IMG/VR virus record: IMGVR_UViG_3300025940_000007
Coordinates: 12,702-76,701 of that record
DNA: 64,000 nucleotides
Source: a virus
Direction: 5' to 3' (one strand)
In this document: in pieces, positions 1,195 to 46,351 of the stretch
Layout: every line of letters begins with the position of its first letter
Position numbering within the stretch: position 1 is the first letter of the stretch
Program-made: the position numbers and the translations under genes
Notes under the pieces: model-generated
What the model was told of the DNA's origin: nothing
Databases searched by the model: none
Seen by the model: only the letters and a program-made list of their open reading frames with translations

Positions 1195-1273
1195 GGGTCG
1201 CCGGGCAACCGGCGGCCCGGAGGCCCGGCCACAGCACATATGAAACCCACGACTGGGTTGCCGGGCCTCCACC
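1195..1273 (+). ncRNA. solitary TIGR-like guide unit preceded by a GCAA-tetraloop hairpin
   Basis: ggaggcccggc-ca-CAGCACATA-tgaaaccca-CGACTGGGT-tg-ccgggcctcc (1219-1270). Confidence 0.85.
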
Positions 1274-1304
1274 CTTCCCCCAACCCACGAAAGGAGCAAC
1301 CATC

Positions 1305-1664
1305 GTGAAAAAGAAATGCCACGCCACCGGAAAGATCCGGCATCGCCGGGACTACGCTGAAGCCCTGCTGAAATCGTTTAACAACGCCGGAATGAGTGCG
1401 TACAAATGCCAGCACTGCTACGGCTGGCACTTAGGTAACAGCCGCACTGACTACAACTACCAAGCCCGCATCGACCAGCTTTTAAAAGGGAGCAAGACGA
1501 ATGACGCCAAGCGAGATGGCAACGGAGATACTGAAGAACATCGAAGCGACCCGGGCAGTGATGGAGGACGGCCCGACTGGGTATGTCCTTCACACAGCGG
1601 ACAAGATGCACCTCCTCTGTCAGAAACCGGGCGGCCAGATCTTCAAGAGCCATCCACAAAATGA
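1305..1664 (+). CDS. hypothetical protein with a CxxC motif (YKCQHCYGWHL)
   Basis: AAGGAG RBS and GTG start; the 3' part overlaps the next gene. Confidence 0.5.
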   Translation: MKKKCHATGKIRHRRDYAEALLKSFNNAGMSAYKCQHCYGWHLGNSRTDYNYQARIDQLLKGSKTNDAKRDGNGDTEEHRSDPGSDGGRPDWVCPSHSGQDAPPLSETGRPDLQEPSTK

Positions 1665-1851
1665 TGCGGTGCTCGTGCTGACATCGCACGCCCGTGCGGT
1701 GACGGCACAGCGTTGGTGGAATCATCACAACCCGGACGACAAGGTGAAGATCGCACTGCGACGCGAAGCGATGCAGGCCTACATCGATGAACAGCAGAAT
1801 GCGCACAACATTCTGCTCACGCTGATCCAAATGAAGGAGCAACTGGGATGA
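1501..1851 (+). CDS. hypothetical early protein, matched by two solitary guides
   Basis: GGGAG RBS; 116 aa; guide mismatches fall on third codon positions of this frame, which supports it. Confidence 0.75.
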   Translation: MTPSEMATEILKNIEATRAVMEDGPTGYVLHTADKMHLLCQKPGGQIFKSHPQNDAVLVLTSHARAVTAQRWWNHHNPDDKVKIALRREAMQAYIDEQQNAHNILLTLIQMKEQLG

Positions 1852-3019: not shown

Positions 3020-3092
3020 CCTCCGTGAGGAGGCTAAGGAGGCCCGGCCAGTACATCGACGCAACCCATGTTGCTCATGCCGGGCCTCCACC
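3020..3092 (+). ncRNA. solitary TIGR-like guide unit preceded by a GTGA-tetraloop hairpin
   Basis: ggaggcccggc-ca-GTACATCGA-cgcaaccca-TGTTGCTCA-tg-ccgggcctcc (3038-3089). Confidence 0.85.
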
Positions 3093-9928: not shown

Positions 9929-10091
9929 TGCTTCGGCCTCGGCTTGCAGGCGCGACAGAACCACATGCCGAGCTCACCCTTGCGAAGATAGACACCGACG
10001 CCGAACGGCGCATCGCCCTTGCCGCAGAGCGCGCAGTTATCGTGGATCAAGTGGCCGTCTTTGTCGTAGTGGGCGTTCGTCTTCTTCTCGC

Positions 10092-11509: not shown

Positions 11510-11548
11510 CCGACCTTAACCCACGGAGAATCATCGCGCAAGAAAATG

Positions 11549-11578
11549 TTGCATCGTACAAAAACAGCGTGTTACAAT
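11549..11578 (+). promoter_or_regulatory. sigma70-like promoter for the guide/tas operon
   Basis: TTGCAT-18 nt-TACAAT with TG extension; predicted start falls at the GNRA hairpin at 11585. Confidence 0.6.
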
Positions 11579-11584
11579 TCGCAC

Positions 11585-11653
11585 GCCGAGTAATCGGCAC
11601 GAGCCCCGGCCAATGTTCGGTTGAAACCCTATAAATCAATGCCGGGGCTCACC
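11585..11653 (+). ncRNA. solitary TIGR-like guide unit preceded by a GTAA-tetraloop hairpin
   Basis: gagccccggc-ca-ATGTTCGGT-tgaaaccct-ATAAATCAA-tg-ccggggctc (11601-11650). Confidence 0.85.
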
Positions 11654-11671
11654 TCTAATTTAGGAGCAACC

Positions 11672-12316
11672 ATGAGCATCAGATCAATCGCCATCGCGGC
11701 TCTACGCGAGCACGGTGGCAAGCCCGAGAAGGCTACCGCTGCGTTTGTGCAGGCGGCGCGCAAGGCGGGCAAGCTCAATGAGCTCGCTCTGGTTTATCTG
11801 CGGATGATCGCCTCGCAGGGCATCGTTGATGCGGTCGCTACGGGCGCCAGTAGCGGCACCGAAAAACCGGTCAGCCCGCGCGTCGCCGCCGTGCTGTCGG
11901 CGCCCAGATCGAACGTCACACCGATCGACACAGCCCGCCGATCGCCCTCCCGCAAGCTCGCCGCACGTGGCGCAATGGCCGAGAGCGTCGAGGCGGTTTA
12001 CGAAATGCAGTTCGACGGTCGCGCGCTCGGTCGCGTGCAGTTCGGGCAGTTGATCACGATGAAGCGGGAGTTCATCGAGGATGCGGCGTCGATGCTCGAA
12101 CACGGCAAACTGTTTGTGCGCAATGCGGTGCTCGCTGGCTTGATCCACGATCACTGCGTCGCTGCGGACGATCTCGCCGAGGTGCGTACGCTGGTCGCGC
12201 CGAAGAAGCTCGCCGCTATGGTCGCACAAGCGGATCGAGAAGCACCAAAGAGAATCGCCGAGGCCACGAGGCGCGCGGCGGAAGCAATGGCAACACCAAA
12301 GGAGCTAGCACGATGA
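11672..12316 (+). CDS. hypothetical protein translationally coupled to the tas gene
   Basis: AGGAG RBS, ATG at 11672, ATGA overlap with 12313. Confidence 0.75.
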   Translation: MSIRSIAIAALREHGGKPEKATAAFVQAARKAGKLNELALVYLRMIASQGIVDAVATGASSGTEKPVSPRVAAVLSAPRSNVTPIDTARRSPSRKLAARGAMAESVEAVYEMQFDGRALGRVQFGQLITMKREFIEDAASMLEHGKLFVRNAVLAGLIHDHCVAADDLAEVRTLVAPKKLAAMVAQADREAPKRIAEATRRAAEAMATPKELAR

Positions 12317-13284
12317 AGAAGCCCACCAAGACGCCCGCGAAGAAGACCGCCGTCAAGAAGACTGCGAAGAAATCCGCTCCCAAAAAGAGCGGGAGCCCGG
12401 CCAGTCTCGCCATGAAATCCTCTGATGGATTGCCGGGCTCACAAATCCTCGACAAGATCATCGAGAGCCACCGTGCGCGGCGGTTCGCGATGGGCATCCA
12501 GCAAGTGCTGGATCGCAAAGTCGAGAGCTATGTCCGGATCAACTTCACCGAATGGAATGCGAACGACGCCGAGGACAGCCGTGCGAAGTCCAACGCCGAG
12601 GCGCTGGCGCTGCTCAAGGCGGCACGCGAGGGTGAAGGTGACGATGAGCTCATCCGCGCGGTGACGATGTCGGACAACGCCCGGGCGCATGCCGACGCCG
12701 AGCGCCTGCGCCACGAGAAGGTGATGACGTCGCTGGCCAAGGATCTGCCGATCGCACCGTGGATCGACTCGGTGCCGGGCCTCGGCTTGCTCGGTGTCGC
12801 CACGATCCTCGCTGAGACTGGCGATCTGTCGAAGTATGCGAACGTCGCCAAGGTTTGGAAGCGCCTTGGCTATGCTCCGTACAACGGACTCGCTGGCTCG
12901 ACGTGGAAGCGACCGAAATGGCGCAACGGTGAGCCCGCGCTCAGTGCCGAAGAGTGGACGCTCAATCCGTTCAACGGGAAGCGCTACGGGATGTTGTTCT
13001 CGATCTCCGACTCGCTGCTCCGCAAACAGTGGATCGGCAAAGCGAAGACCGAGGACGGCAAAGGCAAGGCCGATGGCAAATACGGCGCCGTATACGAGAA
13101 GCGCCGCGAGCACACTGCGGTGACGCACCCGGAGTGGACACCGAAGCACAGCCAGATGGACGGCCTTCGCATCATGATGAAGGAAGTCATTAAGGATCTG
13201 TGGGTCGAATGGAATCGACACGCAGCGGACGGGCGCCACACTTCTCGTGATCCCCTTGGGACGGATGCGCCCGTCCAACTCTAA
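12313..13284 (+). CDS. TIGR-associated Nop-domain RNA-binding protein (TasA-like; no RuvC or HNH visible)
   Basis: IS110/Nop-like core WIDSVPGLGLLGVATILAETGDLSKYANVAKVWKRLGYAP and C-terminal H...LR...K..IKDLWVEW; no DEDD or HNH motif; directly followed by a dual-spacer array. Confidence 0.85.
   Translation: MKKPTKTPAKKTAVKKTAKKSAPKKSGSPASLAMKSSDGLPGSQILDKIIESHRARRFAMGIQQVLDRKVESYVRINFTEWNANDAEDSRAKSNAEALALLKAAREGEGDDELIRAVTMSDNARAHADAERLRHEKVMTSLAKDLPIAPWIDSVPGLGLLGVATILAETGDLSKYANVAKVWKRLGYAPYNGLAGSTWKRPKWRNGEPALSAEEWTLNPFNGKRYGMLFSISDSLLRKQWIGKAKTEDGKGKADGKYGAVYEKRREHTAVTHPEWTPKHSQMDGLRIMMKEVIKDLWVEWNRHAADGRHTSRDPLGTDAPVQL
12393..12440 (+). ncRNA. TIGR-like guide unit inside the 5' part of the tas CDS
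   Basis: gagcccggc-ca-GTCTCGCCA-tgaaatcct-CTGATGGAT-tg-ccgggctc. Confidence 0.75.
13227..13276 (+). ncRNA. TIGR-like guide unit inside the 3' end of the tas CDS
   Basis: ggacgggcgc-ca-CACTTCTCG-tgatcccct-TGGGACGGA-tg-cgcccgtcc. Confidence 0.8.
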
Positions 13285-13285
13285 T

Positions 13286-13774
13286 CGGTCGCCATCGTCC
13301 CGTTGAAAACCAACGCCTTGGTGCGACCGCGAGCCCCGGCCTGCTGCGCTGTGAAGCCCACGAGGGTGCCGCCGGGGCTCACCTATTCGAGATCGTCTGC
13401 AGCGATGCAGGCGAGAGCCAGAGACCACCTAACGCGCGGAGCCCATTATTGCTCTGTCTCTGGCTCACCAATTCAAGACACGGTCGCCTCAGTGCTTGTG
13501 AAGCCCAGAGATGGCATGCGACCGTAGAGCCACGGCCCGTTGTACTTGCGAAGACCAAAGGTCACTTGGCCGTGGCTCACCCATTCAAGATCACCGCCAG
13601 CGATGGCGGTGCGAGCCCCGGCCACACTGCTTGTGAAGCCCGTTCTCGGATTGCCGGGGCTCACCTAATTCGAACTACGGTCGCCACGATGCAGATGGAA
13701 ACCAACCAGCCGATGCGACCGCGAGCCCCGGCCACTCCTCGGATGGAAAACCCATGCGCTATTTGCCGGGGCTC
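13286..13774 (+). ncRNA. stem-loop TIGR-like array 1 (8 guide units and 2 empty GCGA hairpins)
   Basis: Alternating cggtcgc/gcgaccg and gagccccggc/gccggggctc stems, each enclosing CC(A)-N9-TGAAGCCCA-like-N9-TG. Confidence 0.9.
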
Positions 13775-14051
13775 ACCTCTTCTTCCGCTTACCGAAGATG
13801 TCGGGCCGAATCTCTTCGGGCGTCATTTCGATCAGCGGTGCAATATCGAGCACGTGGTGCGCGGGTACTTTATTCCACGCGGCTACGTTCTGGTGAGACA
13901 CATTGAGATGTCGAGCAATGACACTCGCAAAGCCGGGTTTGCTGAAGATCATCTTCATGACGTGATCGCGCTGCGAGTCACGTCGTTCGCTTGATCGTCT
14001 CATGATCTCGCCGCGCATAAAGCGCGCGGCCTCCACTGCTGTGCTGCTCAT
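13773..14051 (-). CDS. second Cro/YdaS-like regulator
   Basis: IARHLNVSHQNVAAWNKVPAHH...EEIRPDIFG; paralogous to 11228-11479. Confidence 0.8.
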   Translation of the reverse strand: MSSTAVEAARFMRGEIMRRSSERRDSQRDHVMKMIFSKPGFASVIARHLNVSHQNVAAWNKVPAHHVLDIAPLIEMTPEEIRPDIFGKRKKR

Positions 14052-14108
14052 TGTCAGGCTTCCTTTGTTAGAGTGCTAACGAACTTACTGAGAGGAGAAC
14101 ATAGCCAC

Positions 14109-14136
14109 TTGAATTAAATTATCAACCGCCTACATT
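14109..14136 (+). promoter_or_regulatory. putative sigma70 promoter
   Basis: TTGAAT-16 nt-TACATT in the AT-rich divergent intergenic region. Confidence 0.4.
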
Positions 14137-14193
14137 GCAATCCAACTACCGCTTGAACTGCCCCAACCCATCCCCCACAGGAGACCACCCGAG

Positions 14194-15003
14194 ATGAAAT
14201 TCCCCAACATGGTTGCCGCCGCCGACGCCCGCGCAAAGCATCTGAAGGACGCAGAGGGCCGCGATCTCTGGCTTCTGGGCGCCGCGACACTCAAGGATTG
14301 CGGCGACGAGATCTTGACCGAGGAGAAGACAATCTCCTCCAGCAAACGTGCGATCAAAGCGCTGGAGAGCGCCGCGAAAGAACTGGCGAAGCACGGGCAC
14401 GAGTACAGCCACATCACCCTGCGCCAGATGGCGGAGACGGTGCTGGCCTTCCCGGCATCCCGGCGCCACGAGGGCGTGACGTTCTTCACGCACACCGAGG
14501 CGCGCAATCCCGACTTGCTCGACTGGATGGTGAAGCAAGTGGGCAAGGAAAAGCTCAGCGGACGCGTCGCCCGTGAGCTCGTCACCCGCTGGTACAATCT
14601 GCAAGCCAACCAGCGCCGCGAGAAGATCGAAGCGGCGAAGGACAAGAAGCGGGCCGCGACTACGCTTGAGGACAAGCGGGCCGCGACGAAAGAGATCAAA
14701 GAATTGGGCAGCACCATGCCGACGCCGAAAGCGTTTCTGGCGCCGCCCGATGAAGACAACCAGCACGCGCTGGCTGTCATGGCGGACGTGCTCAGCATCG
14801 ACGCTGATGCAATGTCCGTGACGCGCACGCTGAGGACCAACCTCTCCGCGTTGCGCAAGATGGGCGAGATCGATCCTGATTTCGTGGGCTCTCTGATCGA
14901 GCATCACGAACAGATTGTCGAGGTCGCCAAGCAGATCGTTAGCGTCCTCAAGGATGCGAAGCGCAACAGGTTCACCACGATCGAAGGAGGAAAGTCAGCA
15001 TGA
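14194..15003 (+). CDS. hypothetical DNA-binding protein (LmbU-like HTH segment)
   Basis: YSHITLRQMAETVLAFPASRRHEGVTFFTH resembles the phage/LmbU motif Y.TL..YA.VA..F..SRR...LS..HH; AGGAG RBS. Confidence 0.5.
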   Translation: MKFPNMVAAADARAKHLKDAEGRDLWLLGAATLKDCGDEILTEEKTISSSKRAIKALESAAKELAKHGHEYSHITLRQMAETVLAFPASRRHEGVTFFTHTEARNPDLLDWMVKQVGKEKLSGRVARELVTRWYNLQANQRREKIEAAKDKKRAATTLEDKRAATKEIKELGSTMPTPKAFLAPPDEDNQHALAVMADVLSIDADAMSVTRTLRTNLSALRKMGEIDPDFVGSLIEHHEQIVEVAKQIVSVLKDAKRNRFTTIEGGKSA

Positions 15004-15602
15004 CTTTAAGAGTAGTAGGAGGCACCACCGCTGCCAATAACGGCAGCGGCGGTGGAGGCGGTCGCGGTGGGCGCGGTCGCGGTCGCGGTCCCACACCGCC
15101 GCCGCCCCGCGCCTTCAAGCCGCACGAGCTTGCGGATCACTTGTGGAACGCGCTGTTTCCGAGTGGAGTGACGTCGATCTATCGCATCGCAACGTTGATG
15201 TCGAGATCGGCGGGCATCGAAGTCTCGGTCGCCACGGTGCGTATGGTGATCGATCACGTCAGGAAAAACCACGCCTCGTATGGCTGGTCGGTCCCGCCGG
15301 TTGAAAAAGGCCGCACGGGCGCGAACAGGAAATACATCGCGGCGCCGGAAGACGTGAACGATCCGGATAACGCGGTCACCGCAGCCGAAGCGGATGGCCA
15401 TCAGGAAGCGGTGCAGCGTGGTATGGTCTCCACGATGCGCACGATCACCACCAACGGCGAGCGTGCCGGTGCATCAGTTGATCTGTTCGCCAACTCGCTC
15501 AATGTTTCGCGCGGCGATAAGCGGTTGCTGCGTGGTGCCGGTGCGGCGCTGACTGGCGCGGCAGCGATCATTAAGGACGTGCTCACCCGCATGGGCGTGT
15601 AG
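15000..15602 (+). CDS. hypothetical protein with Gly/Arg-rich N-terminus
   Basis: ATGA-coupled; GGAGG RBS. Confidence 0.65.
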   Translation: MTLRVVGGTTAANNGSGGGGGRGGRGRGRGPTPPPPRAFKPHELADHLWNALFPSGVTSIYRIATLMSRSAGIEVSVATVRMVIDHVRKNHASYGWSVPPVEKGRTGANRKYIAAPEDVNDPDNAVTAAEADGHQEAVQRGMVSTMRTITTNGERAGASVDLFANSLNVSRGDKRLLRGAGAALTGAAAIIKDVLTRMGV

Positions 15603-15706
15603 TCCTCAACAGTTGACGCCCGGGACTCTTGCCCCCAAGCCCAGCCCGGGCTTCATGAGCCCGCGCCGTCCACCTCCACCGAGGTGAGGCGGCGCGGGTG
15701 ACTACC

Positions 15707-15759
15707 GAGCCCCGGCTGTGGATCAGTTGAAGCCCTACCTACCTTTGCCGGGGCTCACC
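15707..15759 (+). ncRNA. solitary TIGR-like guide unit in the 5' UTR of recE
   Basis: gagccccggc-tg-TGGATCAGT-tgaagccct-ACCTACCTT-tg-ccggggctc. Confidence 0.8.
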
Positions 15760-15784
15760 CTTTTTCAAACTCAAGGAGCAACAG

Positions 15785-16714
15785 ATGCAAGTGCGCAAGT
15801 GGGACGGACTCCCGATATCGAAGCCCGGTTGGGTCAGCGGAATTCCGATCGAACGCTATCACAGTGCCGGGATCTGCAACGGCCCGTCTGTGAGCTCTTC
15901 AAATCTGCGTCGGTGCTGGACGCACAGCCCCGCGCACATGTTCGCGCAGTGGGCAGAGAATCCGAACGCAGAGCCGAAAGAGGCGACGCGTCAGATGGTG
16001 CTCGGGCAGGCAGCGCATCACTTGCTGCTCGGTGAGGATGGCTTCTCAACAAAGTTCGTCGCGCAGCCGCCGGAATATCCGGACAAGAAAACTGGCGAGA
16101 AGAAAAAGTGGCACAACGGCGCCGAGTTTTGCAAGGCGTGGAACGCCAAGCAGATTGGCAAGACCATCGTGACCGTTGAGGAGTTGCAATCCATCATCGC
16201 GATGTCGCGCTCGCTCGCGCTGGAGCCGCTCGTCAAGGAAGGCCTGCTGACCGGCCACGTTGAGACGTCCGGATTCATTCGTGACGGCGAGACAGGTTTG
16301 TGGATCAAGGTCCGGCCCGACGTGATCCCGACCGATGGCGGCGACTTCGCGGATCTCAAAACCGCGAACGAGGTGACGACCGTTGCGCTGATGTCGGCGA
16401 TCCGGACCTACGCGCTCCACATGCAGGGTGCATTAATCTGGGAAGTCGCGGAGACGCTCGGCCAGCCGTTCGAGAGCTTCGTGTTGATGTTCATCGAGAC
16501 GCAGAATCCATACTGTGCACGCGTGGCGCCGATGGATGACAAGGATCTGAGTTTCGGGCGCCAGCAGAACCGCTTGATGCTGCGGACGATCAAGGGATGT
16601 ATGGAGGCGAACCACTTCCCGGGTCCGGGCGAGGGCGATCTGCGACCGCTGCCGCTGTCGAACGACGAGCGCTCGCGGATCGAGGAGCGTCTGAAATTGG
16701 AGAATGCATTATGA
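15785..16714 (+). CDS. RecE/exonuclease VIII-like PD-(D/E)xK nuclease (DUF3799 type)
   Basis: YH...SSSNL...SPAH, G.AAH.LLL, KVRPD...ADLKT, Y..H.Q motifs. Confidence 0.88.
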   Translation: MQVRKWDGLPISKPGWVSGIPIERYHSAGICNGPSVSSSNLRRCWTHSPAHMFAQWAENPNAEPKEATRQMVLGQAAHHLLLGEDGFSTKFVAQPPEYPDKKTGEKKKWHNGAEFCKAWNAKQIGKTIVTVEELQSIIAMSRSLALEPLVKEGLLTGHVETSGFIRDGETGLWIKVRPDVIPTDGGDFADLKTANEVTTVALMSAIRTYALHMQGALIWEVAETLGQPFESFVLMFIETQNPYCARVAPMDDKDLSFGRQQNRLMLRTIKGCMEANHFPGPGEGDLRPLPLSNDERSRIEERLKLENAL

Positions 16715-16920
16715 GAAAGCCGGGCGGACAGAAGGCGCGCGGTTTCTATCTGGCGATGTGCGACAAGCCGAACTGCGGCCCGCACATCATTGCCTTCGAC
16801 AGGAACGAGGTGCCGATCTGCGACGTCGCCATCCCGCTGGACGGCGTCCGCTCGCTGATACAGGCGCTGCAGCGCATGTCGTACATCAAGGCTGTGGAGC
16901 AGGATGATGAAGGAGACTGA
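16711..16920 (+). CDS. hypothetical protein
   Basis: ATGA-coupled; GGAG RBS. Confidence 0.55.
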   Translation: MRKPGGQKARGFYLAMCDKPNCGPHIIAFDRNEVPICDVAIPLDGVRSLIQALQRMSYIKAVEQDDEGD

Positions 16921-18352
16921 GCGGCGCCGGATCGAGCGCGAGATCCTCCAGAAGAAAACAGGGATGCGGCACTGCGCTTCCTGCGATCAATTCCGGGCGC
17001 CGGATGATTTCCCGGCGCCCGGGGCGATTAGGTGCAGCCGCTGCTTGGTCAGCCAGTCACAGTCGCGCACCGATCCGGCGCTCGACTTTCGCGGGCTCGA
17101 CATCAAGCGCAAGGGCGACTCGTTCGTCATCGAGAAGGCCGACGACCCGAACGCATTGCCAATGGAGGCTGACGAATTGACCGATCGACTCATGGAAGGG
17201 GCGCCGCTGTTCGGCAAGGCAAGCGACGTGCTTGGCGATCGTGGCCAGTCGCACAAGTTCGGCCCGGGCTATGATGACATTCGCACCCAGCGCGCGGCGC
17301 GTCGCGACGACAGCGTGGCGCGGATGCTGTTGAACACTGTGCGCAAGGAAGAACCGCCGCCGCTGTTGCTGGACGATCGCCCGCTGATCGATCGACTGCA
17401 CGAGGGCACCTTCACCAATGCGCCCGGGCTGTCCACGATCAAGGATCTCTACGGACTGCGCATGCTGTTGCGGAAAGCACACTGCTTCACCCTGAGTGAA
17501 GAGACGTCGCGGCTGGTGGCGGATTTCTCGATGGCGATCTCGGGCGATCTGGAGTCGTCGCGCAAGATGGCGATCCCGCCGTTCCCGGTCACGTGGATCG
17601 ATCTCGACAACCGCGCGCGGTTGAACCGGATGCGCGAGCTCGGCATCTCGCTGACGCCACAGGCCGCCGGGGAGACCGAGGCCGGGGCGCCGGTCGATCG
17701 CGTGGGCTGGCTGATTCATCCCGGCGTCGAGCATGGTGGGTTTCATGCGAGCTATTGCTGCGTGGTCGAGCAGGGCGCGCTCGTGGCGCCGCTCTCATAC
17801 TGGTGGCATTGTGGGACATCGGCGCCGATGCGCGAAGTGGCGGGCAACGATGTGCTGATGCAGGGGCTTACGTTCGGAATGAAGAACGTCAACGTGCATC
17901 CGCACGATGCCTTCCCGTGCCCGACCGTGTTGCATGATGACCTAAAGGTCCGCGACAAGGAGCATGTGCTCGAACTGATGTCAGAGATCTCCGGAGAGCT
18001 CCGCCACGTGTGGGGCCTGCTGATCGCTCTGGGCGCCGGGCAACTCGGGATGGAAGCGAAGACCAGCGTGCAGCCGAAGCACACAGATATCCGGAAGATG
18101 CCGAACGGCAAGCCGCTGTTGCCGCTGGAGCACAAGGTGCTTCACTTGCACCTCGCGAAGAAGATGACGCCAGCGCGTGTCGTGGTGCGGATGATGACGC
18201 ATCACAAGCACAGATGGCACGAGGTGCGGGCGCATTTCCGCACCTACAAAAATCCGGATGGCACGGTGCGGATGCGCATCCCGATAAAAAGTCACGAGCG
18301 CGGTGATGAACGCTTGGGACGAATCGAAAAAACTTATAGTGTTGAGAAGTGA
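16904..18352 (+). CDS. hypothetical phage protein (N-terminal Zn finger, C-terminal H.VRAH.R motif)
   Basis: 482 aa; CASC..CSRC; RWHEVRAHFR...HERGDERLG. Confidence 0.7.
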   Translation: MMKETERRRIEREILQKKTGMRHCASCDQFRAPDDFPAPGAIRCSRCLVSQSQSRTDPALDFRGLDIKRKGDSFVIEKADDPNALPMEADELTDRLMEGAPLFGKASDVLGDRGQSHKFGPGYDDIRTQRAARRDDSVARMLLNTVRKEEPPPLLLDDRPLIDRLHEGTFTNAPGLSTIKDLYGLRMLLRKAHCFTLSEETSRLVADFSMAISGDLESSRKMAIPPFPVTWIDLDNRARLNRMRELGISLTPQAAGETEAGAPVDRVGWLIHPGVEHGGFHASYCCVVEQGALVAPLSYWWHCGTSAPMREVAGNDVLMQGLTFGMKNVNVHPHDAFPCPTVLHDDLKVRDKEHVLELMSEISGELRHVWGLLIALGAGQLGMEAKTSVQPKHTDIRKMPNGKPLLPLEHKVLHLHLAKKMTPARVVVRMMTHHKHRWHEVRAHFRTYKNPDGTVRMRIPIKSHERGDERLGRIEKTYSVEK

Positions 18353-18378
18353 CAAGCGGTATGTGATACACTTCAAGA

Positions 18379-18449
18379 TCCGCCGCGAGGCGGAGGAGGC
18401 CCGGCCAGAGCGATGGTGAAACCCACAGTGACATTGCCGGGCCTCCACC
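18379..18449 (+). ncRNA. solitary TIGR-like guide unit (GCGA hairpin + guide) in the 5' UTR of recT
   Basis: ggaggcccggc-ca-GAGCGATGG-tgaaaccca-CAGTGACAT-tg-ccgggcctcc (18395-18446). Confidence 0.85.
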
Positions 18450-18470
18450 TAATTCAAACAGGAGCAGTTT

Positions 18471-19490
18471 ATGGACATCAACGAAATCGAACGTCGCGTC
18501 GATCGCGCGATCGCGGCACCGATCCCGGTCAATGCGGATCTCGGCGGGCTCACGTTGGAAAACATGGGCCAAGTCATGGAGTTCGCGAAGCTCATGAGCG
18601 TCTCCGGCGCCGCTGTGCCCAAGTATCTGCGCGGCAATCCGGGCGCCTGTCTCGCCATCTGTTCGCGCGCGCTGCGGTGGAAGATGGACCCGTTCGCCGT
18701 GGCGGAAAAATCCTATCAAGTGATCAACAAGGGCGAGGAGCGCGTGGCGTTCGAGGCCCAGTTGGTTCATGCCGTGGTCACCGCGCGCGCACCGTTGAAG
18801 GGGCGCCTGCGTCATGAGATTATTGGAGAGGGCGACGATCGGCGATGCGTCGTATGGGGCACGTTCAAGAACGAAGATGCCCCGCACAAGTACACCAGCG
18901 AAACGCTCGGCAAACTGCGCGACGCCCGGGGCCGCAATGACTACGGCGCGGTGAAAGGCTCTCCGCTTTGGGATAATCAGCCCGAGGTGCAGTTGGCTTA
19001 TTCCGCCGTGCGCCAATGGTGCCGACTTTACGCGTCGGAAACGCTGCTCGGAGTCTACACTCCGGACGAGCTCGAAGACGGCAGCACGCCGAAAGACGTG
19101 ACACCGACCAAGACCGAGTTGCTGACGCAGCGCCTGAAAGATCAGAAGGCGCAGCATGCTGACACACGCAGGGGATTCGATGCTGACTACGTCGCCAAGC
19201 AGGCGGCGCTCAGTTCGATAATCGAAGGCGACGTCAATTCCGATGAAGCCGAGACAAAGGGAGAGAGAGATGACGGCGGTAGCAATGAGCCTGACGCTGC
19301 GCGAGGGGCGGACGGTGCTGGTGATCGACGGGATGGAGATCGAGACCAAGGCGGAAGCGAAGGCGGTCTCAACGATGATCAGTCAGTGGGCGGAGGGTCT
19401 GCCGGAGAGCAAGCCCCGGACGCCGAGGAAGGCGAAGAAGGCAGCGCGCCAAACCGCCAAGCGAAGCCGAGCCCCAAGGGCAAACGGTGA
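18471..19490 (+). CDS. RecT/Bet-like ssDNA annealing protein
   Basis: VPKYLRGNPGACLAI..A.RW.MDPFAVA, SPLW...P..QLAY.A.R.WCRLY..E.LLGVYT.DEL. Confidence 0.88.
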   Translation: MDINEIERRVDRAIAAPIPVNADLGGLTLENMGQVMEFAKLMSVSGAAVPKYLRGNPGACLAICSRALRWKMDPFAVAEKSYQVINKGEERVAFEAQLVHAVVTARAPLKGRLRHEIIGEGDDRRCVVWGTFKNEDAPHKYTSETLGKLRDARGRNDYGAVKGSPLWDNQPEVQLAYSAVRQWCRLYASETLLGVYTPDELEDGSTPKDVTPTKTELLTQRLKDQKAQHADTRRGFDADYVAKQAALSSIIEGDVNSDEAETKGERDDGGSNEPDAARGADGAGDRRDGDRDQGGSEGGLNDDQSVGGGSAGEQAPDAEEGEEGSAPNRQAKPSPKGKR

Positions 19491-19533
19491 AGTGATCGAT
19501 GACGCTGAGACAGCGCAGGAGTCGCTTATCTGA
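19270..19533 (+). CDS. small protein overlapping the recT 3' tail in another frame
   Basis: Purine-rich RBS (AAAGGGAGAG) then MTAVAMSLTLREGRTVLVIDG... Confidence 0.5.
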   Translation: MTAVAMSLTLREGRTVLVIDGMEIETKAEAKAVSTMISQWAEGLPESKPRTPRKAKKAARQTAKRSRAPRANGEVIDDAETAQESLI

Positions 19534-19822
19534 TCCCGGCTATCTGGCTTGGCTGCGCAAGCAGCGATGCGCGTGTTGCCAACAGCCGCCGCCATGCGAT
19601 GCGGCTCATCTTCGAGCCTCATCGTTCGCGTACGGCAAGACGAATGGCATGGGGCAGAAGCCTGACGACAACTGGGCTCTGCCGTTAAAACACATGCATC
19701 ACATGGCGCAACACTACAGCGGCAATGAACTCGCATGGTGGGAGACGCACGGCGTCGCTGATCCGTTTGCGCTGGCGCAGAATTACTACGCCAGATATCT
19801 GAAACTCAAAGGAGCACCGTAA
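19499..19822 (+). CDS. DUF968-like HNH/Zn-finger protein
   Basis: YLAWLRKQRCACC...DAAH...GMGQKPDD..ALPL..HH..QH. Confidence 0.75.
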   Translation: MTLRQRRSRLSDPGYLAWLRKQRCACCQQPPPCDAAHLRASSFAYGKTNGMGQKPDDNWALPLKHMHHMAQHYSGNELAWWETHGVADPFALAQNYYARYLKLKGAP

Positions 19823-20030
19823 TCGGTCGCCTTGGCCATGATGAAACCCAGATGATCTTCGCGACCGACGAGCCCGGCCAAGCAGTAACTGGTATCCATT
19901 GAACTGGCGCCGGGCTCACCTATTCAAGATCGGTTGCCAGCGATTGAGTGAGAACCACAGATCGGTAAGCGACCGTAGAGCCTCGGCCAGCAATAGTCTG
20001 AAACCCATCGCACGAGTGCCGGGGCTCACC
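19823..20030 (+). ncRNA. stem-loop TIGR-like array 2 (4 guide units)
   Basis: Spacer pairs TGGCCATGA/GATGATCTT, AGCAGTAAC/TTGAACTGG, GCGATTGAG/CAGATCGGT, GCAATAGTC/TCGCACGAG in alternating stems. Confidence 0.88.
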
Positions 20031-20054
20031 AATTTTAACCCAGAAGGAAACCAA

Positions 20055-20477
20055 ATGACCACCACCTCCGTCATCCCACACGACCGCCTGCACGTAGCAA
20101 ACGACCTCGAACAGGCAATCCACAGCGGAGCACAAGCCATTCGTGAAGGCGCGCGCATGCCGAGGACCACGCCGCTGATTCCGACGCAGATGCGCGGGCT
20201 TGACGAGCTCGGCAAGATGTCTGCCGAGGCTGTCCTCACGCAATACGAAGCCGCAGCGAAAGCGGTGGAGGACATGGGGAAGGAGGTCACCGCGATGGTG
20301 CGCAAGCTCGGCCAGTCGCTGCAGGAATGCGACAACGACATGAAGGTTGTCGCCGAGACTGCGGCGGCGATCCGAGAGAAGGGCAAGCACTCTCAGGCCC
20401 TGATCGAACAGGTAAGTGCGCTATCCTCCGAGATCCGCAAGACCTGTGATGAATTCAAGAAAAAGGTCGGGCTATGA
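20055..20477 (+). CDS. hypothetical coiled-coil protein
   Basis: AAGGA RBS then ATG at 20055. Confidence 0.7.
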   Translation: MTTTSVIPHDRLHVANDLEQAIHSGAQAIREGARMPRTTPLIPTQMRGLDELGKMSAEAVLTQYEAAAKAVEDMGKEVTAMVRKLGQSLQECDNDMKVVAETAAAIREKGKHSQALIEQVSALSSEIRKTCDEFKKKVGL

Positions 20478-23279
20478 CGCGAGACGAAAAGATCACGGTG
20501 CTTTATCATCTGTGCCGGGCTCTGCATGAGAACGGCCAGACGATGACCTACGGACAGGCGGCGAAGATGGTGGGATGCATTCCGATCGCCCTCGGTCCCA
20601 CGTTGCTTGGCGCGGTGAACCATCGCGCCAACGACATCATCACGGACGTGATCGTCAACGCCACGACCCGGCACCCGGGCGACGGCATCGCGATCGGCCC
20701 GCCGTGATCCTCAATTACAAACGCAACACGCGCGGGACGCTGCAGGCTGCACAGGCTGGCAGCGTCCGCGTCGGCTATGTCGAGCAAAGCGTCCAGCCCA
20801 ACCGCTGGATCTGGAGTTTGAACACCATCCAACCCAAGGGCGGACGCGCAAGCGGCATCGAGGAGACCGAGCACCTCGCCAAGGAGGCGCTGGAGCGTCA
20901 GTGGGTCAAGTGGATTGAGGCCGCCGGTCTTTCGATAAAGGAGCACGTGGAATGAGACAGTTTCTCAAAATCGGACTCGGCGGATCGGCGGCGCTGGCGC
21001 TGGTGATCACGTTCGCGCTCGGGCGTACACCGTCACCCGCGCAGGACCAGAAGGCCTTCGAGGCGTGGGCCGCGAGACTTGCGGATGATCCGGAGCCATT
21101 GAAGAAGGCCGATCAGATCCGGGTGGTGAGCACCGAGCGCATCGTGGTCGAGCCGATCGTCAAGGAAGTCGCAGTGCAAACGAAGGTGCCGCCGATCATC
21201 CAGACCGATGACGACAAGGGCGAAAAACCGAAGAAGCGAATACATCATCGCACCCGCGTAGCTGACGCTGGCGGCAATGTCTGCACGCGCCACGGCAAAC
21301 GCAAAGTGACCACGCATGGTGGTCGATCATGGAGATGCAGATGACCGAGACTTATTTGGGCGACGGGCTCTACGCCTCGTTCGACGGCTTTCAATTCTGC
21401 CTGCGGGCGCCGCGCGGTAACGGGGACCACAAGGTCTTCCTCGACGCTGCAACGATGCACGCGTTCGATCAATTCAGGAAGAGCATATCTGCCGCCAACA
21501 ATGTCGCGCGTGACCAGATCGACCGCGAGCTCGGCAAGCTGCAGGCTGGCGAGCCCTCGATCACGGACGGCAGGCGATGAGGCTCAGCGATGAGATGTCG
21601 AAACATTGGTTCGGGTTGCCGGTGAAGCTGCGCGTGCGATGGTGGGTCGAAACAGATTACGGCAAGAAAGAACCGAGCGAAGAATTGAAGCGCGAGATCG
21701 AAGCAGCGATCGTGGAAAAGGGGAAGGTTGATGGACGAACACCTTGATGGATTATCAGCGCTGGTGCACGAGAGGCTGAAGCGCCTGAAGATGGACGAGA
21801 CCGCGTCGATCACGTGCACGAAGGAATTCCCGGGGGACGAGGTGCGGCTCTACGTGACAGCCTACGCGATGCACAAGAAGAAGTGGTTTCTCACCGAGTA
21901 TGACAAGGCGACAAACACGGTGAAGTGCAAGCGCGCGCCGGAGCCCGATTGGGAAGCCCAGAACGTAGTCGATGAAGAGGAAGAGTTGTGATGGTGGACA
22001 CCACCCAGATGAGTCTCGAAGACTATCAGGCGTACATGGATAAGCTCGCGCTGCGCATCAGCGAGACCATGAAGGGCGCCCGGCTGGAGGATGCGCTGAG
22101 CGCCTGTGCCGCCAACATTGGATTCGGCATGGTGCAGTTGCCGGAGGCGCAGCACGACAAGATGCGCGCGCACCTCAACAAGATCATCGACGCGATCCTT
22201 GAGAAGGCGCCGAGGCCGCAATGAGAGACAACGACATGAGCGTGGTCCCCACGCGGTTCTGGCAGTCGATGTCGCTGGAGGAATTCGACGCGCTCGCCAA
22301 GAATGACGGCTGGCTCAATGCAATTCAGTGCGCCCGGCTGTGGCGCATGACCGAACGCAACACGCGACCGCCGCTCAAGCTACAGATATTTCTCAAGCGC
22401 GACGAAGTCGAGAAGTTAGCCAAATGATGGGGCCGGGAAAACATGACGATCTTTGCACGCTGGTGCGTGAGCAACTCGGACTCGGCGACACGGGCGGCGT
22501 GATGCTGATCGTGTTCGGCACCAAGGAGCAGAGCGGCTTCGCGTGTCAGTGCGACTACATGACGACGATGGCGCTGCCGGAGATTCTGGAAGACGTCGCG
22601 AGGCAGATCCGTGAGGATCGCGAGAAGGGCATCGTATGAAAAAGTTCGTGCCGCTGACGCTGCAGGCGAACCGGATCAAGTCTGGTCAGTATGGCAGTGA
22701 CGAGTCGTATGGTCTGGCTGGAGCTTTCCGCCTGATCGCGCCGGGAGGCACGCTGTTGCTGGCCCTATCGAGTGGGCCAGAGAACGCGGCGAATGACACG
22801 GGCTGGGAGCACGTATCGGTTTCGGCGGAGCAACGTCCGCCGACGTGGGAGGAGATGTGCTGGATCAAAGATATCTTCTGGGATAAACACGAAATGGCGG
22901 TGCAGTATCATCCGCCGGAATCAGAGTATGTGAATTTTCATCCGCACGTTCTGCACATCTGGCGCCCCACGCAGATGACGATTCCGATGCCGCCCATGTT
23001 GCTCGTGGGACCAAAGCGATGACGACGATTCACCACAGGACCACGTGTCCGTTCTGCGGCACGCACCATGACCGGATCACCTCGACCATAGAGGAGGTGG
23101 CACCGGAGGACGGCGACGCCTCGATGTGCTTCGCCTGTGGCGAGTTCAACATCGTGGATAGCAGCACCGACGAAGGGATGCGCAAGCCGACCAAGCGCGA
23201 GCGGCGGATGCTCGATGACGACGAACGGATTGCCGAGCTACGGGAGGCGTGGCGCATGGCAAGAACGGTGCGGCAATGA
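20474..23279 (+). CDS. run of about 11 short, mostly translationally coupled hypothetical genes (e.g. 20474-20707, 20952-21344, 21341-21580, 21731-21991, 21988-22224, 22221-22427, 22424-22639, 22636-23022, 23019-23279)
   Basis: Consecutive ATGA overlaps; 22636-23022 carries the common phage motif WEHVSVS...PTWEEMC. Confidence 0.65.
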
Positions 23280-23289
23280 CAATCCAGAT

Positions 23290-24030
23290 CGATCGCCATC
23301 GTACTGTTGCAACCCAACGAGCGAATGCGATCGCGAGCCCGGCCCGGTTATATTTGAAGCCCCCTATGCGGACGCCGGGCTCACCCTTTCGAATCGATCG
23401 CCGGTCAGTGAGTGCAAACCACAGAAGACTTGCGATCGCGAGCCCGGCCAATTCATCGATGAAGCCCAAAGCCGATATGCCGGGCTCACCCTTTCAAATC
23501 GGTCGCCTGATCAATCGTGATCTCCAAGGAAATCTTGCGACCGCGAGCCCGGCCTCTCGCCCTTTGAGGCCCACGTTGTTGATGCCGGGCTCACCCTTTC
23601 CAATCGCCAGCCATTTTGAAGGTGCAAACCCGAGCATGGATGCTGGCGAGAGCCGGGGCCACAACTGTCGTGCGATCCCGATCGCGGGTGCCCCGGCTCA
23701 CTCAATTCGAATCGGTCGCCAGACGTTGTGTGAGATCCCATCTGCACTTGCGACCGACGAGCCCGGCCCGTTCGCCCTTGATGCCCTTGAACCGTATGCC
23801 GGGCTCACTCTTTCGAAGATCGGTCGGCCCTCCGGTCGATGAAGCCCCCGGACCGATTGCTGACCGTAGAGCCCCGGCCCACGAGCGACTGAAGCCCACT
23901 GTCTGCGTGCCGGGGCTCACCTAACACGAGATCGGTCGCCGCCACCGCTGTGAGACCCACACGGCATCTGCGACCGCGAGCCCCGGCCACCGAGCACCTG
24001 AAGCCCAAACGAGCAGTGCCGGGGCTCACC
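23290..24030 (+). ncRNA. stem-loop TIGR-like array 3 (14 guide units in 7 tandem pairs, period about 107 nt)
   Basis: Strict alternation of cg(g/a)tcgc- and gagccc(c)ggc-type stems, each with two 9-nt variable spacers around a 9-nt loop repeat. Confidence 0.92.
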
Positions 24031-37666: not shown

Positions 37667-37734
37667 GTGAGGGCGGGCCTTGGCCAAGAAGGTCATGAAA
37701 CCCATTCGACTGTTGTCTCTGGGCTCGCCCTCAC
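37667..37734 (+). ncRNA. solitary TIGR-like guide unit, antisense to the late operon
   Basis: gtgagggcgggcc...cca-AGAAGGTCA-tgaaaccca-TTCGACTGT-tg...gggctcgccctcac. Confidence 0.85.
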
Positions 37735-37737
37735 ACC

Positions 37738-40092
37738 TCAAGCAACAGCGACGTCGATGCGTTCGCCGACGAGATAACAGGCGTTCACGTTGTCCGTGGT
37801 GCCCTCCATGCGGATTTTGTACGCGGTGATCGCAGTGCCGCCGAGCGCTGCCAAATTCCACGTGCAGTGGCGCAGCAACACAGTCGGATCATCCGGATCG
37901 ACTTCGTCCTCGATCAGTGATGGCGTCCGCACACTGGTGTAGCCCGCACCAGTCAATAGGCGCGGAATGAAGGTGTGGTACGGCGCACCACGCCACGACT
38001 CTAGCCGGAAATCTCCGTAGACCGTCGTGACGGGTCCGGGCGTGGTCCGCGCGGTACTGATGTGGCGGAAGTCCGAGCGAGGCCGCGACGTCAGCGATCG
38101 CGAATTCGCCGCCACACCGAAGCCGGGCATTTCGTCGGTCGTGCCCACCAGTGTGATCCGGAATGGCAACAGCGGCGGCAGCGCAACGAGCGGGTTGGTG
38201 TCGTAGTAGCCGAGCGGCACCCACGCGCCGTTGACTTGCACCTCGAAATTGATCGTGGTGCCGGGCGGGCGCGTCGAGTCGAAGTTCAAATCGATCGCCG
38301 AGATACCGCCGTTCAATTCCAGCGACAGCAGTTGCGCGGTGCACTGCGTGGTGCGGAATTTCGCGAAGTAGAGCCGGAAAGAAAGATCCTTGGTGAGATC
38401 GCCGAGCGCCCACGCTCCATCGGTGGAAGTGAACATCGAGCCTTGCGCGAACTTGTTGTTGTGCACCAACGCGACGAAATGATTGCCGGGCGTCTGTAGG
38501 ACGAAGGCGTAACGCTGACCCTTCGCCAGATAGGTCGGCAGGAAGTCGAACTTGGTCGCGTTCGGTGACGGTCGCAGCAAGTCCGCAGGCTTGGTCGAGC
38601 GCGCAATCGTTCGCTCGAAATTCGGCGCACCGGCTTCGTTACATTCGCAGATCAGGCAGTGCACGTCGCCCGTTGCCGCGATGCGGGTGAAGAAGATATC
38701 GACGCCAGTCAGCCAGCCGCCCTGTGAATTGAGATAGGTCTGCGAGATCACCGAGCCCGACAAACCATCGACCGTGATGACTTGCCGCCAGTAATACGAG
38801 TCCACGATTTCATCGACCCAGAACTGCACGAGCCGGAGCACCGTGTGGTTCGGGTTGTCCATCACGTCGAGGATCTGGAACGTCTCGGTGCCGCGCGTCA
38901 GGATGTTGCGGATCGGATCGTAGATCAGATCGGTGTTCGGCGTGTAGCCGCCGACAGCCGCAGGAGGCATACCGACGTTCGTTCCGTAGTCGTGACCGGC
39001 TGGCGCGAACCACCAGACGCCGTTCGAGCAGACCACCATCGGCGTGCCCCAACGAATGCGCGTTCTGGTCTTGGCGCAGAGCTCCCACGAGATCGTTTGA
39101 TACTGATACTGGGAGATCGACAGTTCGGAATCCTTGCCGAGCACCTCGATGCGCACCACTTGGTCGTACACAGGCAGAACGAAGTTGGCCTGATTGATCA
39201 CCGCCGGGTCCATCGGGTTCAACAGCCCAAACTGCGCCTCGCGTTCGGCGGCGTTCGGGAAGCGAATACCCTCCTCGCACTTAGCGAGGTAATCCACGTT
39301 CTGCAGATCGGACTCGTCCGTGGTTAGGAAGTGATCGGCGCCCCACATCGAATAGGTGTCAGGCAGGCCAACCTTTTCCTTCACGCGCGCGACGTCGGTT
39401 GCGATCTTCAGCACGAACTTCATGCCAGCGGTGCCGTTCAAGCGCACAGCCAGCGCGGCCATGTCGGTCGCCAGTGTGTCGAGCCGTGACGCAGTCTGCG
39501 CACGCCATGCATCCATCTCGTTCAAGCGGTCATCGAGATCAGCAAGGTTCGGCGCCCGGTTCTCGTTCACCATCTGGATCGAGATGATGCCGGTGCTGTC
39601 GAGCAAGATCCAAGCAACCGCCAGCGTGTTCGATGCCACGCTCGGATGCTGCGGGTCCGGACCTTCGGCGCCGATCACGGTGCTGATGTTGGCCCAGCGA
39701 CGGCTTTCGGTGGAGACCACACGCGCGACGGTGGCACGCGTCACCGGATCAGTCAGGAAGGTTCTCGGCTCGGTGTCGGTCTCGATCTCTTGGCCCCAGA
39801 CCACCACGCCGACATATCGACGCGTCACCACCGGGAGCACGCCGAGCAAGTCGAGAGAGGCGCCGCCCTCGCTGTCGTTATAGAACACCAAGCCGTTATG
39901 GTAGAGCCGCCCGTTGCCCACGGTGACCACCGCTGGCGCCGTCTGCACCGTGGTGAAGCCCGTGTACGCCATGCTCGGGATCAAGGTATCCACAACGACA
40001 TGGTCGAAAGATGCACGCGGGAAGAGGCCGAAGTTATTGAAGTCTTCGACAGTCACCTTCTGCCAGTCTTGGATGTTTACCTTGCGTTCCAT
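37738..40092 (-). CDS. large baseplate/tail-associated virion protein
   Basis: 784 aa downstream of the gpI-like gene; SVISQT...GWLTGVDIFF beta-rich C-terminus. Confidence 0.7.
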   Translation of the reverse strand: MERKVNIQDWQKVTVEDFNNFGLFPRASFDHVVVDTLIPSMAYTGFTTVQTAPAVVTVGNGRLYHNGLVFYNDSEGGASLDLLGVLPVVTRRYVGVVVWGQEIETDTEPRTFLTDPVTRATVARVVSTESRRWANISTVIGAEGPDPQHPSVASNTLAVAWILLDSTGIISIQMVNENRAPNLADLDDRLNEMDAWRAQTASRLDTLATDMAALAVRLNGTAGMKFVLKIATDVARVKEKVGLPDTYSMWGADHFLTTDESDLQNVDYLAKCEEGIRFPNAAEREAQFGLLNPMDPAVINQANFVLPVYDQVVRIEVLGKDSELSISQYQYQTISWELCAKTRTRIRWGTPMVVCSNGVWWFAPAGHDYGTNVGMPPAAVGGYTPNTDLIYDPIRNILTRGTETFQILDVMDNPNHTVLRLVQFWVDEIVDSYYWRQVITVDGLSGSVISQTYLNSQGGWLTGVDIFFTRIAATGDVHCLICECNEAGAPNFERTIARSTKPADLLRPSPNATKFDFLPTYLAKGQRYAFVLQTPGNHFVALVHNNKFAQGSMFTSTDGAWALGDLTKDLSFRLYFAKFRTTQCTAQLLSLELNGGISAIDLNFDSTRPPGTTINFEVQVNGAWVPLGYYDTNPLVALPPLLPFRITLVGTTDEMPGFGVAANSRSLTSRPRSDFRHISTARTTPGPVTTVYGDFRLESWRGAPYHTFIPRLLTGAGYTSVRTPSLIEDEVDPDDPTVLLRHCTWNLAALGGTAITAYKIRMEGTTDNVNACYLVGERIDVAVA

Positions 40093-45860: not shown

Positions 45861-45934
45861 GTGAGGGCGGGATCAGTGGTTTGGCCTCATCCATCCTGAA
45901 GCCCATGTAGTCTGTGCCGTGATCTCGCCCTCAC
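45861..45934 (+). ncRNA. solitary TIGR-like guide unit, antisense to the late operon
   Basis: gtgagggcgggatca...cct-CATCCATCC-tgaagccca-TGTAGTCTG-tg...tgatctcgccctcac. Confidence 0.85.
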
Positions 45935-45937
45935 ACT

Positions 45938-46351
45938 TCAATCTTCCAGCACGCGAACCATGTGCACATCCCACCGCCCGCTATAATCGGGATGAATGAA
46001 TGTGACCTCGTGCGTCTGGTTGCGATCAGGGAAGAACACGCGATCGCCCTTCTTCAAATCGCACTGCAGAATCGGCTCGTGCCGGATCGACAGCATCGTG
46101 TCCACCGTCGCTTGCCGCGTGATCATTGGCCCGCCCACGCCCTCGGTGGCGCCGCGCGTGGTATCGAAGATCCCCGTTGCGATCACCTCGACGCGGTCCG
46201 GATCAGGCACGCTCGCACGGTAGCCGCTCTTTTCCGTCCGCATCGGTTTCAGCACAACAGGTTCGCCGAACACGCTATCGACGCGGAAATCTACCGGCTT
46301 GCTGTCGTTGACGGTCGCCATGTTAGCCGTGCTCGATGGTTGCAGAGACAA
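45938..46351 (-). CDS. head-tail joining/closure protein
   Basis: VD.VFGE.V...P, KKGDRV, V..IHPD..GR; position. Confidence 0.65.
   Translation of the reverse strand: MSLQPSSTANMATVNDSKPVDFRVDSVFGEPVVLKPMRTEKSGYRASVPDPDRVEVIATGIFDTTRGATEGVGGPMITRQATVDTMLSIRHEPILQCDLKKGDRVFFPDRNQTHEVTFIHPDYSGRWDVHMVRVLED

Follow-up and report, generated by a model that had tools for sequence, protein, structure and literature searches.

Predominantly 17-bp target matches of stem-loop TIGR guides in a phage-borne TasA clade

Stem-loop TIGR-TasA systems, represented by PlTasA of a Peromyscus gut contig, by MbTasA and BlTasA and by the systems of the TIGRFinder survey, combine a nuclease-less Tas protein of the Nop/coiled-coil type with guide RNA (tigRNA) units that are located upstream and downstream of tas, within its coding sequence and in scattered subarrays (PMC12045711; 10.64898/2026.09.09.750476). 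Their published targets are composed of two adjacent 9-bp halves (9+9), and their natural targets have been called undeterminable. Here we describe a system of this kind in the 76.7-kb phage-like contig IMGVR_UViG_3300025940_000007, whose bases 12702-76701 (64,000 nucleotides) constitute the analyzed window. Each unit consists of a stem, box C (CCN), the 9-nt spacer A, box D (YG), a loop of 4 nt (6 nt in one case), a second CCN box, the 9-nt spacer B, a second YG box and the closing strand of the stem. The system resembles the described ones in its Tas protein and in the arrangement of its units, but it also includes solitary hairpins dispersed across 45 kb of the phage genome, its guides match mostly 17-bp sequences, and the last bases of the two spacers (a9 and b9) covary. 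It is a known kind of system, a stem-loop TIGR-TasA, whose targeting geometry departs from the published one.

The original prediction, an earlier reading of this DNA from its letters, had stated that characterized TIGR guides use adjacent 9+9 targets, and the literature agrees: the CsTasR structure recognizes ‘an 18-bp target overall’ (10.64898/2026.09.09.750476), and in PlTasA each heteroduplex comprises nine base pairs (10.64898/2026.08.11.744272). Faure et al. described dual-repeat arrays lacking such covariation and concluded that overlap was unlikely. Our literature search returned no relevant report of natural TIGR targets or of overlap.

The dual-repeat TIGR-TasR and TIGR-TasH systems (TaTasR, ParTasR, SpTasH) likewise use tandem spacers that address both strands with their 3' ends central, require no protospacer-adjacent motif (PAM) and have a related protein fold. 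They differ in that their 36-nt units contain edge and loop repeats, that they possess nuclease domains, and that their spacers show no A/B covariation (‘unlikely to overlap’). These systems tolerate gaps of 1-2 bp in vitro (PMC12045711), whereas in the present clade natural matches at +1 and +2 do not exceed background and an offset of -1 dominates. The target-binding loop of the IS110/IS621 bridge RNA also reads opposite strands with an overlapping center, a 2-bp core read on both strands (PMC11208160), and the RNA-binding domain of its protein is homologous (Pfam Transposase_20; IS621 among the fold matches). In contrast to that system, the present one lacks a donor loop as well as RuvC and Tnp catalytic domains, employs many single-loop guides per genome where IS110 has one two-loop RNA, and overlaps by 1 bp of free sequence rather than by a conserved CT core. 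Identity with an IS110 bridge recombinase, which has an N-terminal RuvC-like DEDD domain, a C-terminal catalytic Ser domain and a single bridge RNA carrying target and donor loops, was considered and rejected, as no RuvC domain was found and there are many single-loop guides. Archaeal and eukaryotic box C/D small (nucleolar) ribonucleoproteins share the C-guide-D'-loop-C'-guide-D topology and a Nop protein dimerized by a coiled coil (PMC12045711), but their guides pair with RNA for 2'-O-methylation, depend on L7Ae and fibrillarin, and address two unrelated sites rather than both strands of a single DNA site.

The protein component is encoded by the following gene:

12313..13284, plus strand: tas gene, encoding a 323-aa nuclease-less Tas protein of the TasA type

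In the Tas protein a disordered segment (residues 1-42) is followed by a coiled coil and by a C-terminal domain resembling the RNA-binding domain of Nop and IS110 proteins. Its only Pfam match is Transposase_20 (PF02371, the IS110-type C-terminal domain; E = 2e-4, above the cut-off), while the profile of the Tas family matches PDB 9mty (TIGR-TasR) with E = 6e-6 and TasH with E = 3e-3. The AlphaFold model (pLDDT 82) is all-helical over residues 43-317, and the best Foldseek matches to it are chains from the TasH-tigRNA and TasR cryo-EM structures (probability 1.00), followed by IS621. Neither the Pfam scan nor the AlphaFold model revealed a RuvC or HNH domain, and the protein was therefore assigned to the TasA type.

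Complementarity of the last spacer bases and offset of natural matches

We found 35 stem-loop TIGR units in the window, all on the plus strand and spread over 45 kb around tas, inside tas and at scattered positions. A mechanical scan detected 32 units, and three more (cores at 37684, 45885 and 19937) have imperfect stems or a degenerate box D'. The a9/b9 combinations of the 35 units comprise 19 Watson-Crick pairs, eight G/T pairs and eight others, exactly the counts of the original prediction. Its chance level of about nine complementary pairs is revised slightly, to 8.0, by permutation of b9 (p ~1e-5), and the excess that it claimed is borne out. Among the 32 units used for a 9x9 matrix of spacer A against spacer B positions, a9:b9 is the highest cell.

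The check that had been proposed, covariation at position 9 in homologous arrays, was carried out on related loci retrieved by means of an alignment of 29 Tas homologues. This retrieval provided 26 loci from IMG/VR, 79 from soil and rhizosphere metagenomes and one contig of a Xanthobacteraceae metagenome-assembled genome (MAG), covering 10 kb on each side of tas. After de-duplication the dataset includes 98 loci (867 kb) with 759 distinct units on the tas strand, as compared with ten units on the opposite strand, which gauge the false positives. Of the first 367 related units, 88% have CCA at both C-box positions and about 97% have TG at both D-box positions. Redundancy among the loci inflates raw match counts, and distinct guides were counted where possible.

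Across the 759 units, a9 and b9 are complementary in 361 cases compared with 186 expected (z = 14.8), and G/U combinations are also enriched (166 vs 121), while none of the other A/B position pairs in the 9x9 matrix lies beyond |z| of about 3. The complementary fraction is above chance in 39 of the 40 loci that have at least eight units. Pyrimidine-pyrimidine combinations are about 4-fold depleted overall (42 vs 148 expected; 2- to 6-fold per individual combination), T/T (that is, U/U) most of all (9 vs 51), and A/C combinations are at expectation (60 vs 68). Enrichment of G/U but not of A/C, along with the depletion of pyrimidine pairs, suggests selection on the ability to pair rather than neutral decay. 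Altogether, complementary, G/U and other units account for 48, 22 and 31% of the dataset, respectively.

The geometry in which targets were sought follows from the cleavage pattern of TasR, which leaves 3' overhangs with each strand cut within its own spacer-paired half (PMC12045711): the target must read 5'-A and then the reverse complement of B, rc(B), to its 3' end, with a9 and b9 meeting centrally. The placement of the first spacer nucleotide at the unwinding junction in the PlTasA study (10.64898/2026.08.11.744272) agrees with central a9 and b9. A gap of -1 denotes a one-base overlap of the two halves (17 bp), and a gap of 0 denotes adjacent halves (18 bp).

When all guides were searched against all related loci at offsets from -4 to +5, gap -1 yielded two perfect and 42 one-mismatch matches, gap 0 yielded no perfect and seven one-mismatch matches, and every other offset in this range gave 0-5 matches, which is the background. 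Reversed targets served as decoys for the numbers of guides that have a match with at most one mismatch. At gap -1, these numbers were 15 true vs two decoy for complementary guides, eight vs four for G/U guides and six vs two for the remaining guides. At gap 0, non-complementary guides gave five true vs two decoy, and none of the complementary guides had such a match, compared with the 15 at gap -1. Gaps +1 and +2 were the same as the decoys. With up to two mismatches allowed, gap -1 exceeded its decoys by about 104 and gap 0 by about 38, in tallies that are summed over mismatch classes and may count one guide repeatedly. The arrangement itself is selective as well, since A+rc(B) gave three perfect and 19 one-mismatch guides, as opposed to 5-10 for rc(B)+A, A+B and B+A.

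On the evidence of sequence matches alone, the clade thus appears to share with other TIGR systems the targeting by tandem spacers, with A and B on opposite strands and their 3' ends central. The other published property, an adjacent and non-overlapping 9+9 target of 18 bp without A/B covariation, was not found as the rule; an 18-bp target fits only a minority. The outcome that would have spoken against the original prediction, targets at gap 0 only, did not occur, as gap -1 matches dominate. Its mixed 17/18-bp rule is supported by the 98 related loci, in which covariation is confined to a9:b9 and matches are found at gap -1, less so at gap 0, and not at gaps +1 and +2 or in other arrangements. 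Decoys, alternative arrangements and control offsets together rule out chance as the source of these putative target matches.

The 18-bp class is well supported in the individual case of guide L059:1860 (a9/b9 A/A; related loci carry L numbers), which at gap 0 matches the KQWIG site of about ten tas genes with at most two mismatches, as against about 0.02 expected. The link between complementarity and geometry is not strict, and complementarity does not dictate 17 bp. For instance, the non-complementary guides 13236 and L019:9905 (both G/A) also fit 17 bp with one terminal mismatch, and the complementary guide L059:582 fits 18 bp. At gap -1 the central target base opposite G/U guides is either C or T, with one wobble in both cases (as in L051:1614). 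A simple mixture of about three quarters 17-bp guides (59/19/22% complementary, G/U and other) with about one quarter 18-bp guides that have random a9/b9 reproduces the observed 48/22/31%.

Guide units and their matches in own genomes and in foreign tas genes

As is characteristic of stem-loop TIGR systems, an array (Array 1) adjoins tas, and two units lie within the tas coding sequence. Guides are named here after the first base of their core, and a9/b9 is given for units outside the three arrays:

1216..1275, core 1229-1260, plus strand: solitary unit, A/T
3035..3092, core 3048-3079, plus strand: solitary unit, the ‘guide 3051’ of the original prediction, A/A
11597..11654, core 11610-11641, plus strand: solitary leader unit, T/A
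12393..12440, core 12401-12432, plus strand: tigRNA unit in the 5' end of the tas coding sequence, A/T
13227..13276, core 13236-13267, plus strand: tigRNA unit in the 3' end of the tas coding sequence, G/A
13286..13780, plus strand: Array 1, eight units with cores at 13292, 13340, 13425, 13487, 13537, 13622, 13684 and 13732
15703..15760, core 15716-15747, plus strand: solitary unit with an aberrant box C (CTG), T/T
18392..18449, core 18405-18436, plus strand: solitary unit, G/T
19823..20030, plus strand: Array 2, four units with cores at 19830, 19878, 19937 (degenerate box D') and 19987
23289..24030, plus strand: Array 3, 14 units with cores from 23296 to 23987; Tandem Repeats Finder (TRF) period 105
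37667..37734, core 37684-37715, plus strand: solitary unit in a minus-strand structural operon, A/T
45861..45934, core 45885-45916, plus strand: solitary unit in a minus-strand structural operon, C/G

Four additional units lie upstream of the window. For 36 guides, no perfect or one-mismatch target was found in their own 76.7-kb contig at offsets from -3 to +3. The near-targets in the window are the following:

1574..1590, minus strand: 17-bp near-target of guide 1229 in the open reading frame (ORF) 1501-1851; 15/17, both mismatches synonymous (PTGYVL)
1779..1796, plus strand: 18-bp near-target of guide 3048 in ORF 1501-1851; 15/18, three synonymous mismatches (AYIDEQQ)
40045..40061, minus strand: 17-bp near-target of guide 37684, close to the start of gene 37738-40092; 15/17, both mismatches synonymous
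45982..45998, minus strand: 17-bp near-target of guide 45885; 13/17, four synonymous third-position mismatches (IHPDY)
54591..54607, plus strand: 17-bp near-target of guide 13236 in the minus-strand gene 54140-54742 (WDGEKW)
56984..57000, plus strand: second 17-bp near-target of guide 13236, in the tail-fibre-like (PHROGs) minus-strand gene 56587-57057

Coding frames were set by the local GC content of third codon positions (GC3), as the choice of the longest ORF misassigned frames in this GC-rich genome. The original prediction held that in four of five clear coding matches the reading frame is preserved only if a9 and b9 address the same base pair. Guides 1229, 37684, 45885 and 13236 do match at a one-base overlap with mismatches in third codon positions, and guide 3051 (core 3048, a/a) fits an 18-bp target as had been stated. 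A preserved frame here means that mismatches spaced in threes across the A/B junction share one codon phase only at the stated offset. At 54591-54607 the central base matches a9 and mismatches b9, and the mismatches outside the center are at synonymous third positions. Both near-targets of guide 13236 have two effective mismatches; the second probably encodes WDGEKW too, a reading that holds in the longest-ORF frame only, since the GC3 frame picks a short plus-strand ORF (HFSPSH). The small ORF 1501-1851 is matched by two solitary guides, 1229 and 3048, whose units flank it. In addition, unit 12401 has a 14-nt contiguous match to positions 104-120 on the minus strand at gap -1.

In the test of the 36 guides, four of the five gap -1 matches with two effective mismatches were fully synonymous, as was one gap-0 match with three mismatches, compared with a background of 1-4% at control offsets. 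The guides of all loci were also compared with their own loci, and the matches whose mismatches share one codon phase were counted. At gap -1, these are ten of 16 two-mismatch and 15 of 81 three-mismatch matches (29% and 7% expected), that is, 25 compared with about 11 expected, a total that includes the matches of the original prediction. At gap 0 there are three of 23 (about two expected), and the remaining offsets are at expectation. Many of these matches are separated from the unit by no more than a few hundred bp. A pooled phase test across loci was noisy owing to redundant loci. The 27 clean gap -1 self-locus matches belong to 16 complementary, five G/U and six unpairable guides.

Many of the matches in related phages sit in conserved coding sites of other phages' tas genes (motifs RFAMKIQ, KQWIGK and FLKDLW), always with spacer A antisense to tas. 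For example, guide L009:9890, whose unit (9882-9930) lies 60 nt upstream of the L009 tas, matches the tas gene of L064 (L064:578-596) at 17/17 and its own tas (L009:10016-10032) at 15/17; both differences, which were read directly, are synonymous third positions. Similarly, guide L053:961 matches L061 at 17/17. Loci with tas-directed guides also include L016, L019, L053, L059 and L074. For all ten tas-directed guides examined, foreign alleles have 0-1 mismatch compared with 2-7 in the own allele. The pattern resembles a targeting of rival TIGR systems that is combined with self-avoidance.

The units themselves show several peculiarities. Array 1 begins 2 nt past the tas stop codon, and two hairpins with a GCGA tetraloop (GNRA-type; 13394-13413 and 13592-13611) fill unit slots of its ~105-nt module and look like spacer-less ‘null’ units. 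In Array 3, modules of about 105 nt contain two stem types in alternation. Unit 11610 sits in the 5' leader of the gene preceding tas, about 30 nt downstream of a strong sigma-70-like promoter (TTGCAT-17-TACAAT, within 11548-11660). Unit 15716 has an alternative allele in contigs of two rhizosphere runs, with a CCA box C, the loop AAAC, wholly different spacers (a9/b9 T/A) and conserved flanks, which suggests that spacer content turns over inside a fixed unit. Apart from this unit, metagenome contigs over the arrays showed almost no unit variation, too little for a covariation test at the population level.

With respect to genomic context, the products encoded in the window include RecT, a PDDEXK-like protein and tail-fibre proteins. 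Tail-fibre genes contain collagen-like tandem repeats of 9 nt (Gly-X-Y) at 59463-61628 and 56700-56750 (TRF; PHROGs tail fibre and collagen-like minor tail). The source DNA is present in more than 20 rhizosphere and soil metagenome runs of many studies, none of these runs being listed as RNA, and neither the locus nor Tas had a DNA or protein match in the phage GenBank collection. The sole relative in a binned genome (L027) is a 4.6-kb contig of the Xanthobacteraceae MAG, on which 18 units were counted; it points only weakly to the family of the host.

Proposed reading of the central base pair and rival explanations

We consider it probable that the usual natural target in this TasA clade is 17 bp long, with a9 and b9 addressing the same central base pair, and that 18-bp targets form a minority. 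Spacers A and B would pair with opposite DNA strands, their box-D-proximal (3') ends meeting at the target center, such that A reads positions 1-9 of one strand and B reads positions 9-17 of the other. Once the central base pair is unwound, its nucleotides would be on separate strands and pair with different spacers, so both may be read, and a9 and b9 would be paired simultaneously in the complex. As they would address the two nucleotides of one base pair, a9 and b9 are expected to be complementary to each other, and a G/U combination leaves one wobble. The terminal position would be weakly selected, with about one fifth to one third of 17-bp guides mismatched there, mostly on the b9 side, and roughly a quarter of guides would use the canonical adjacent 18-bp geometry.

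From the pairing topology of box C/D RNAs, the two heteroduplexes may be expected to lie side by side, antiparallel and bridged by the displaced single strands. Such bridging would explain the tolerance of TasR for gaps of 1-2 bp (PMC12045711), and a 1-bp overlap would shorten each displaced strand by one nucleotide. Binding that represses without cleavage is the likely outcome, given that Tas has no nuclease domain and that published TasA proteins repress transcription (10.64898/2026.09.09.750476).

Several observations weigh against a central base pair shared by the two spacers. The a9:b9 constraint is loose, with less than half of the units complementary and 31% unable to pair. Complementarity is a poor predictor of geometry for the individual guide, as the two-mismatch excess at gap 0 includes complementary guides (29 vs 11). 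In nine of the 11 non-complementary self-locus matches at gap -1, the central base corresponds to a9 and not to b9, which hints that spacer A may ‘own’ the shared central base pair; the PlTasA/SpTasH preprint also describes an asymmetry between the two spacers. All candidate targets are sequence matches, many with 1-4 mismatches, and the solved complexes of stem-loop Tas proteins (CsTasR, PlTasA) show 9+9 bp on designed 18-bp targets. Finally, identical 17-bp matches result from a 9+8 footprint in which b9 is unpaired.

According to this last explanation, which we regard as unlikely, spacer A alone reads the center of a 17-bp target, and a9:b9 complementarity is a decaying by-product of the origin of the units, for example by copying both strands of one 17-bp segment with a 1-nt overlap. 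The preference for a9 over the complement of b9 in the nine self-locus matches and the large share of unpairable units are in line with it, and heteroduplex length does vary among Tas proteins, being 8 bp in SpTasH and 9 bp in PlTasA and TaTasR (10.64898/2026.08.11.744272). However, decay would not readily enrich G/U while leaving A/C, equally one transition away from a complementary pair, at expectation, nor deplete pyrimidine pairs, and TIGR systems are not known to have a mechanism of spacer acquisition (PMC12045711; 10.64898/2026.09.09.750476).

It seems highly improbable that the matches are due to common descent and not to present-day targeting. In that case the guides would have been assembled from parts of genes of the phage itself or of its relatives, and the 17-bp rule would record origin instead of recognition. 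Own-genome matches are indeed always mismatched and often close to the unit, as this explanation would have it. Yet foreign tas alleles match better than own ones in ten of ten cases, and synonymous self mismatches combined with better foreign matches are what targeting selection plus self-avoidance would produce. There is also no obvious passive route from a contiguous 17-mer to a pair of A and inverted B in a box C/D hairpin.

An intramolecular a9:b9 pair in the tigRNA with a canonical 18-bp target would account for the joint enrichment of complementary and G/U combinations, but we give it very little credence, because it predicts gap-0 targets for complementary guides, which have none with at most one mismatch, because a9 (by the loop-side box D) and b9 (by the stem-side box D') occupy opposite ends of the internal loop and do not face each other, because U/U is the most depleted combination although U-U is a comparatively tolerated RNA-RNA mismatch in nearest-neighbor data, and because the pair could form in only 69% of units.

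Significance for TIGR targeting and a possible role in phage competition

TIGR targets are currently treated as 18 bp long, with overlap considered unlikely and natural targets not yet determinable. If a 17-bp rule holds across the clade, target searches have to be adapted, since in the decoy-corrected tallies with up to two mismatches gap -1 accounts for about three quarters of the excess natural matches, which a search for 18-bp targets only would miss. The rule provides candidate natural targets along with a design rule for compact, PAM-less TasA repressors, and it forms a further mechanistic connection with IS110 bridge RNAs, in which the core is read in an overlapping manner. If it is true, the TasA clade lies between the IS110 bridge RNAs, with their shared 2-bp core, and canonical TIGR systems, with no overlap.

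The wider proposal, that the clade reads the central base pair from both strands and that its arrays serve as weapons in phage-phage competition, is one that we favor by a small measure on the present matches. If it holds, the first natural TIGR targets to be findable would be alleles of related phages, notably the conserved sites in rival tas genes, with the own copies escaping through synonymous changes.

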